Of a stretch of DNA of 38,764 nt, positions 35,649 through 36,341 are shown piece after piece. Under the pieces are notes generated by a model, which did no database searches, was not told the DNA's origin, and saw only the letters and a list, made by a program, of their open reading frames with translations. Positions within the stretch are counted from its first letter, which is position 1, and every line of letters begins with the position of its first letter. The DNA comes from a virus (taxonomy: Duplodnaviria; Heunggongvirae; Uroviricota; Caudoviricetes), in the IMG/VR virus record IMGVR_UViG_2718218171_000001; one strand, 5' to 3'. A program made the position numbers and the translations under genes.

Positions 35649-36053
35649 ATGAATGATATCTATGCAGTTGTTGATAATAACGTTGTTATTAATGTCATTA
35701 TCTGGGACGGAATTTCTGAATGGAAACCAGAGGCTGGTAATTTAGTTCCGTTAAACGGCGATGCTGGCATCGGTTGGTCATATTCAGACGGAGTATTTAC
35801 CGCGCCACCTCCCCCAGAACGCTCTCACAACGCGTTAGTTGCGGAGGCTGAGCTGCAGAAATCAGCACTACTGACCGTAGCAAATAACACAATAGCACCG
35901 CTGCAGGATGCCGTTGATTTGGAAATGGCGACAGACGATGAACAGGCGTTACTGCTGGCGTGGAAAAAATACAGGGTGCTGCTGAACCGTGTTGATACCT
36001 CAGCGGCACCCGAAATAGAGTGGCCTACGCAACCGGGGGAGCGGGCCAGTTGA
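35649..36053 (+). CDS. Tail fiber assembly protein (Tfa)
   Basis: 134 aa; C-terminus ...[28 protein letters not shown] matches the conserved Tfa C-terminal motif. Confidence 0.8.
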
Positions 36054-36174
36054 TATCAGGCGCAGCGTCAGCATCAACTGCTGTCACTGCGTCGATGTAG
36101 TCGAGTACCGCATTCAGCCGCGTTTTTTCATCATCAGTCAGTTTGCGGCCTGCACTTCTCCGTTGGCATCTTTG
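36025..36174 (-). pseudogene. Vestigial convergent tail-fiber-assembly (tfa-prime) C-terminal fragment
   Basis: Minus-strand open frame with no start codon encodes ...[39 protein letters not shown], ending with the same VD..AP.I.WP..P motif as the plus-strand Tfa; its stop (36025-36027) overlaps the Tfa 3' end. Confidence 0.4.
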
Positions 36175-36316
36175 TTATATGGTACAACTGCGCAGAGGCC
36201 TGTCTCTTCAATTGTGCCAGTTGAATACTACGATACAACGCTCGGCCTTCCTGTTTGGTGGAACATAACCACATCCACATGGAAAAGAGCTGATGGTATA
36301 GATGTATAAACTTAAA

Positions 36317-36338
36317 AAAGGCGCTTTTTAGCGCCTTT
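36317..36338 (-). terminator. Rho-independent terminator downstream of the acyltransferase gene
   Basis: Stem aaaggcgc / gcgccttt around loop ttttta; on the minus strand it is followed by a T-run; 4 nt after the gene stop. Confidence 0.6.
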
Positions 36339-36341
36339 AAA

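Follow-up and report, generated by a model that had tools for sequence, protein, structure and literature searches.

Organization of the prophage right end

The DNA analyzed here (hereafter referred to as the window) is the complete 38,764-nt sequence of IMG/VR record IMGVR_UViG_2718218171_000001. Its right end constitutes the tail-fiber, lysogenic-conversion and integration end of an Escherichia coli prophage of the SfV/SfII/SfI/e14 family, with baseplate genes (up to position 35017) that are 97–98% identical to those of phages SfIV, SfII, SfV and SfI. SfI, SfV and e14 have been assigned to a single morphogenesis family (PMC3636060). The sequence of E. coli 2021CK-01784 (NZ_CP104371.1) shows 100% identity to window positions 35649-36345, and in this identical RefSeq record the prophage and its intS gene adjoin a tRNA-Arg gene. 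From left to right, the genes and features of the region are:

34716-35648, plus strand: stf, full open reading frame of 310 aa, intact, a single open frame across the crossover site
34716..34992, plus strand: constant 5' part of stf, counterpart of the constant part of e14 StfP
34993..35018, plus strand: single Pin/Gin-type crossover site, CTCTCGAAAACC-TT-GGTTTGGGAGAT, at the constant/variable boundary of stf
35019..35648, plus strand: variable 3' part of stf, glycine-rich receptor-binding end (Pfam Gly_rich_2, E=8.8e-19)
35649..36053, plus strand: tfa, intact tail-fiber assembly gene, 134 aa (Caudo_TAP, E=4.6e-33; RefSeq WP_000998154.1)
36025..36156, minus strand: tfa' relic, last ~43 codons and stop of a TfaE/TfaS-type chaperone gene (Caudo_TAP match; DNA homology)
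36151..36309, plus strand: P22-like tailspike relic, 3' end of ~52 codons and stop, head-to-head with the tfa' relic
36317..36338, minus strand: intrinsic terminator of the acyltransferase cassette (9-bp stem, 5 GC pairs, T-rich tail)
36342..37466, minus strand: acyltransferase-3 family gene of the lysogenic-conversion cassette (Pfam Acyl_transf_3, E=1.3e-28)
37607..38764, minus strand: intS integrase gene, annotated as intS in the identical RefSeq record (96% identity to K-12 intS)

A mosaic tail-fiber gene with a single crossover site

The core of the crossover site, AAACCTTGGTTTGGGAGA, is located at 35000-35017, inside the fiber gene, and is the only match in the window returned by an 18-mer search allowing up to 3 mismatches, for which 0.06 matches would be expected by chance. 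The repeats TTGGTTTGGGAGAAGG of e14 have been experimentally shown to be the endpoints of P-segment inversion, with PinE, PinQ and PinR acting on them (PMC12529663). The window site, TTGGTTTGGGAGATGG, departs from this repeat at one edge position and is otherwise identical to e14 pixL; by analogy with hix and gix sites, its full extent would be 26 bp.

The jayE-ymfQ-stfP region of e14, a cryptic prophage of K-12, is 96.5% identical to the window at the DNA level up to position 35020 and, more broadly, e14, SfV, CPS-53 yfdL and phage vB_EcoM-689R6 maintain 96–97% identity up to 35017-35023 and are unrelated to it further on. The constant part of stf is present in 1,641 of 5,426 complete E. coli genomes, and nearly all of the matches listed end at the crossover site (query position 302–310). 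To judge from these alignments, the crossover site is a module boundary in stf. The variable end, which is unrelated to either the StfP or the StfE end of e14, occurs complete, and with the tfa body, in only 66 of the 5,426 genomes, and in each of these 66 carriers one uninterrupted, colinear alignment covers both the constant part and the variable end. In the public RefSeq/PGAP annotation, 34716-35648 is split into a 'stfP pseudogene, missing C-terminus' and a 'glycine-rich domain-containing protein' starting from an internal codon; since stf is one open frame across the crossover site, the split is apparently an artefact that the mosaic joint has caused in the annotation.

A truncated chaperone gene convergent with tfa

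An earlier note on this DNA, made without database searches, had proposed that a start-less minus-strand frame encoding a second Tfa-type C-terminus converges with, and overlaps, the 3' end of the intact tfa gene. Both observations are borne out here. The minus-strand frame ends in a TAG stop (36025-36027) and can be followed back to about 36153-36156, beyond which it meets an in-frame stop (36175-36177) with no usable start codon after it. Its product matches profile positions 94–130 of 131 in Pfam PF02413 (Caudo_TAP) with E=6.1e-11 and 43 bits, the cut-off for this family being 22.1 bits, and is 67% identical to residues 156–200 of the 200-residue e14 TfaE, 65% identical to a P2-like prophage Tfa and 60–63% identical to K-12 TfaS. 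Similarity to Tfa proteins, on which the earlier note had made its reading depend, is therefore significant. The frame and the intact tfa overlap at their stops by 29 nt (36025-36053), leaving 103 of the 132 nt of the relic outside the overlap.

Alignment with the tfa/stf/pin regions of related prophages, as the earlier note had suggested, revealed colinear DNA homology of the relic to tfaE, tfaS and two P2-like tfa genes, running from GCAGGCCGCAAACTGAC / GCAGGCCGCAAACTG to the stop codon. No DNA homology to any of these genes was found 5' of GCAGGCCGCAAACTGAC, and pairwise blastn places the homology break at 36153-36157. The fragment is thus considerably shorter than first thought: within the 36025-36340 interval initially assigned to it, only the 132 nt from 36025 to 36156 are tfa-like, the remainder being made up of the tailspike relic (36151-36309) and the terminator (36317-36338).

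The full-length domain, start codon and open frame of a functional Caudo_TAP gene are all absent from the relic, which RefSeq/PGAP labels 'tail fiber assembly protein, incomplete, missing N-terminus'. Across seven aligned alleles, all six polymorphic sites fall on the first or second codon position in the minus frame and were scored as non-synonymous, a pattern that fits an absence of selection on the protein. The tfa' relic is an ordinary pseudogene of a well-understood kind, already annotated publicly and with a known precedent in K-12 tfaS.

The tfa'-tailspike relic pair is present in 68 of the 5,426 complete E. coli genomes, in combination with several O-antigen cassettes, and the truncation point of tfa' is identical in 24 further loci from IMG/VR and metagenomes. 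The recurrence of the same truncation point in these 68 genomes and 24 metagenomic or viral loci indicates that the truncation event is, in all likelihood, old and unique.

A different truncated and frameshifted TfaE-type fragment, with 78% DNA identity to the window relic, was observed on the 93.9-kb E. coli plasmid p19KM2326_1 (locus L005, 5972-6189), where it is surrounded by IS elements and by cif and espT, which encode T3SS effectors. On the opposite strand to the relic, the 3' two-thirds of the intact tfa (35816-36004, plus strand, outside the tfa' relic) yield a sub-threshold match to Rfam family IS009 (48 bits versus a gathering score of 117; E=8.6e-10). This family was presumably built from tfa-like prophage sequence, and the match is probably not an RNA gene.

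The tailspike relic and the exchange of O-antigen cassettes

Head-to-head with tfa', the plus strand encodes from ~36151 to 36309 a peptide ending in ...LYGTTAQRPVSSIVPVEYYDTTLGLPVWWNITTSTWKRADGIDV*, a motif that in tblastn searches matches the extreme C-termini of CBA120 orf212 (last 52 codons) and of Kagunavirus tailspikes. The same terminal motif is found in an intact 587-aa tailspike of strain GF66.2, which bears P22 Head_binding (E=1.2e-66) and Beta_helix domains and is part of a P22-like prophage block where the tailspike gene is convergent with gtrC-gtrB-gtrA-int. Neither the head-binding domain nor the beta-helix body is present in 36151-36309, which retains the C-terminal ~52 codons only. 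The alleles of this relic show ~35% divergence in their last 60 nt, yet most prophages keep the reading frame; an exception is the 2013C-4282 allele, whose frameshift is consistent with decay of the relic. In the GN06156 allele, the last ~70 nt and the adjoining gtr cassette align to GF66.2 without mismatch. This GN06156-type end is the only one for which an intact counterpart was identified, and none of the proteins, genomes and metagenomes searched contained an intact tailspike with a 3' end of the window type.

The acyltransferase cassette (36310-37466) has a GC content of 31.6%, compared to 49% for the window. The acyltransferase gene occurs in 4 of the 5,426 complete E. coli genomes and has precisely these surroundings in every one, and sister prophages carry in its place gtrA-gtrB together with various serotype-specific glucosyltransferases. 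Five or more different cassettes are found linked to the relic pair, and depending on the prophage the junction lies at 36251, 36298 or 36309; homology between the window and prophages with other cassettes stops at 36309. Given that an intact P22-like prophage matches both the end of the GN06156-type allele and the gtr cassette beside it, the tailspike relic appears to act as the left homology arm through which O-antigen cassettes are exchanged, and there is some support for the broader notion that the relic pair persists as such an arm for cassette swaps among P22-like, SfV-like and P2-like phages.

These data also bear on the suggestion in the earlier note that the acyltransferase gene now occupies the space of the lost fiber-switching genes. 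The acyltransferase gene does lie on that side of the relic, but the truncation point abuts the 3' end of the tailspike and not the acyltransferase. With the acyltransferase present in 4 genomes and the relic pair in 68, its acquisition did not cause the loss of the switch; it is best read as a late and rare swap.

Relationship to invertible tail-fiber segments

The Mu G segment (S/U, S'/U', gin) and the P1 C segment (cin) combine a serine invertase, a crossover site inside the fiber gene and convergent chaperone genes. A similar arrangement of convergent tfa genes is found in the invertible H/G segments of two P2-like prophages (L006 and L007), which share 70–71% DNA identity with window positions 35841-36157. 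The switches of Mu, P1 and the P2-like prophages are complete and functional, whereas the remnant in the window cannot invert.

The e14 P segment (stfP-tfaP / tfaE-stfE, pinE), which lies on an almost identical backbone, is the intact counterpart of the window locus; it has in common with the window the crossover site, the constant fiber N-terminus, and tail-to-tail tfa genes with a 29-nt overlap. The e14 segment retains both sites, both variable ends, both chaperones and PinE, and it inverts (PMC12529663), whereas the window retains one site, one variable end, one chaperone gene plus the stub of a second, and no invertase. The 29-nt overlap of convergent stops, present in e14 tfaP/tfaE, recurs in CPS-53 yfdK/tfaS and in the P2-like L007, and the convergent tfa pair of the P2-like L006 overlaps by 20 nt. 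In e14, L006 and L007, the convergent tfa pairs adjoin a serine invertase with Resolvase and HTH_7 domains, that of L007 being 87% identical to PinE.

The closest precedent for the window relic is tfaS of the K-12 prophage CPS-53 (KplE1). CPS-53 belongs to the same prophage family, uses the same argW/intS attachment module, with an intS gene that is 96% identical, and displays the same order of fiber gene, tfa (yfdK), inverted tfa relic, short spacer, O-antigen cassette and intS. Its tfaS is, like the window relic, of TfaE type (60–63% identical to the window relic) and overlaps its partner by 29 nt. The two differ in that tfaS keeps 100 codons (94% identical to TfaE) and the window relic 43, so that their truncation points are different, and in the spacer, which in CPS-53 contains RyeG/YodE and in the window a dissimilar tailspike 3' relic.

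A third layout is relevant to the right-hand side of the window. In P22-like phages, a tailspike gene is followed by a convergent gtrABC or oac cassette and int, and 36151-36309 corresponds to the 3' portion of the tailspike gene in this arrangement. The window differs from the P22-like layout in that only the last ~52 tailspike codons are present, attached to an SfV-like contractile-tail module.

The switch is locked

Searches for the remaining components of an inversion switch were negative. No invertase was detected in the window by tblastn with PinE and the L007 invertase (best E=1.6), and none was found in the 24 related loci from IMG/VR and metagenomes. The window contains no second variable fiber end, but one complete set and 43 codons of a second chaperone gene, and these results agree with the claim of the earlier note that neither an invertase nor a second fiber gene is left. 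Its proposal to look for residual crossover sites led to a mixed outcome. One site is present at 35000-35017; on the right, the 18-mer search allowing up to 3 mismatches located no second site in the window, and the best match to the pix site in 36054-36345 scored 13/25, a value equaled by 82–96% of background windows of the same size. A residual right-hand site, including a suggestive CTTCTCC at the joint, was rejected on the grounds that 13/25 is at background level.

Genome assemblies provided no inversion isomers: the locus is colinear in all 66 genomes and in the same orientation in the seven loci that were inspected. The lack of a second site, a second fiber end and an invertase indicates that the switch is dead, with the fiber locked in the expressed orientation. 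Out of five defining features of the Din family (Gin/Cin/Pin/Hin) that were tested, the locus displays one, a crossover site inside the fiber gene at the constant/variable boundary, and lacks four: an adjacent invertase, two inverted sites, two tail-to-tail sets, and observation of both orientations. It is therefore a relic of this family and not a member of it.

The view, first put forward in the earlier note, that tfa' is left over from an invertible tail-fiber cassette of the Mu G / e14 P type that has lost its invertase and second fiber gene is supported by the surviving e14-type site, by the stop of homology at this site, by the shared 29-nt overlap and by the TfaE type of the relic.

Origin of the relic

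We consider it probable that tfa' (36025-36156) derives from the second chaperone gene of a Pin/Gin-type invertible segment, that it no longer functions and that the ancestral switch has been lost. In the ancestor or donor, a serine invertase would have flipped the DNA between two 26-bp sites, one in the fiber gene and the other adjoining the invertase gene, so as to fuse the constant fiber N-terminus alternately to two variable receptor-binding ends, each with its own chaperone, and the 3' ends of the two chaperone genes would have converged, overlapping by 29 nt. Of this segment, the window would preserve the left site and a single variable end with its chaperone, along with the 43 terminal codons of the chaperone gene that faced it. 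The rest of tfa', the second fiber end and the invertase would have been replaced, in a single illegitimate recombination event, by a P22-like block comprising the 3' end of a tailspike gene, a cassette for modifying the O antigen and an integrase gene, with the truncation representing the left joint of the exchange and the joint leaving two gene 3' ends abutting at 36151-36157. At a later stage, gtrABC variants and, in the window, the acyltransferase would have been swapped in by homologous recombination, with the tailspike relic as left arm.

Two elements of this scenario, a working switch in the ancestor of this lineage and a single illegitimate recombination with a P22-like module as the cause of the truncation, are what we infer from the arrangement of the locus. 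For the latter, the presence of two 5'-truncated genes abutting at 36151-36157 makes a single illegitimate joint the most economical reading. Megablast and tblastn searches against phages for an intact parent of the tfa' allele returned truncated copies or nothing, and no intact parent was identified among 5.8 billion proteins (word-indexed search), the 5,426 E. coli genomes, IMG/VR and metagenomes, or among 185,579 species representatives (two degenerate-pattern scans). Similarly, the variable end and tfa of the window were not found within an intact invertible segment, all 66 full-length E. coli cases being locked. As no intact parent was found, the order of events given above is reconstructed, not observed.

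The main alternative is that this lineage never had a working switch, and that it received the variable end and tfa in one block with a tfa' stub that had been truncated beforehand. The donor in this case would be a phage with an invertible segment, possibly P2-like, and the left exchange would have taken place near the crossover site or in the conserved 3' end of tfa. The nearest DNA homologues of the tfa/tfa' junction (35841-36157) are indeed the invertible segments of P2-like prophages, at 70–71% identity, and not SfV-like sequences; SfV has no tfa' relic; and across the 1,641 genomes the constant part and site are joined to many different variable ends. Furthermore, the locus IMGVR_UViG_3300045988_135787 (L025, 2423-7438) carries the tfa 3' end, the tfa' relic, the tailspike relic and gtr behind a P2-like gpJ/gpI/gpH module. 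The relic block therefore moves between contractile-tail types, and it may have entered the lineage already truncated. Set against this, e14, with a 96.5% identical backbone up to the site, has a complete switch, which indicates that the backbone family carries such switches, and CPS-53, which occupies the same attachment site, harbors a relic of its own, with 100 codons and 94% identity to TfaE. On balance we regard import of a pre-truncated block as unlikely, and it differs from the preferred explanation only in where the truncation took place; under both, the fragment remains a relic of an invertible module.

Far less probable is that the spacer has been kept because it is expressed as a small gene or RNA, for instance through the 98-codon plus frame at 36016-36309 or an antisense RNA over the 3' end of tfa. 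At the equivalent position, the CPS-53 spacer encodes the toxic small protein YodE (RyeG) (PMC7498339), a 48-aa product located between the tfaS relic and the gtr cassette and in the same orientation; the window plus frame is open in six of seven alleles, and gene callers have placed 'hypothetical proteins' of 59–63 aa here. The window sequence nevertheless has no similarity to YodE, the only canonical start is a TTG (36163) without a Shine-Dalgarno-like sequence upstream, a frameshift disrupts the 2013C-4282 allele and radical changes occur in that of WP8, a promoter scan was at background (3 found versus 2.0 expected), and no Rfam match reaches the family threshold in the spacer. By the same token, co-option of the plus frame (36016-36309), which runs antisense through tfa' into the tailspike relic, as a toxin or a tfa regulator, by analogy with YodE, seems very doubtful. 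A spacer ORF at 36163-36309 has the same length as K-12 YodE (L009, 4498-4644) by coincidence.

An inverted duplication of the 3' end of the resident tfa, the other origin contemplated in the earlier note, or a chance likeness arising from a near-palindromic end coding for WPxPP, can practically be dismissed: both C-termini do share an AP-I-WP motif and the overlap (TGGCC...CCGG...GGCCA) is nearly palindromic, but the relic is identical to the resident Tfa at only 16 of 35 positions versus 63–67% identity to TfaE/TfaS-type proteins, which excludes a simple inverted duplication, and the Pfam match (E=6e-11), the 103 of 132 nt lying beyond the overlap and the colinear DNA homology to tfaE, tfaS and P2-like tfa genes all speak against either origin.

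Implications

For annotation purposes, tfa' should stay a pseudogene, the 310-aa fiber ORF should be treated as intact, and 36151-36309 should be designated a tailspike relic and not a gene. From a biological standpoint, the tfa' relic documents the death of a host-range switch, in which the fiber gene kept its crossover site and one receptor-binding end, and a block for serotype conversion and integration, derived from another type of phage, took the place of the alternative end and of the invertase. The locus thereby adds an example to the known mosaic evolution of tail-fiber and O-antigen-conversion modules.
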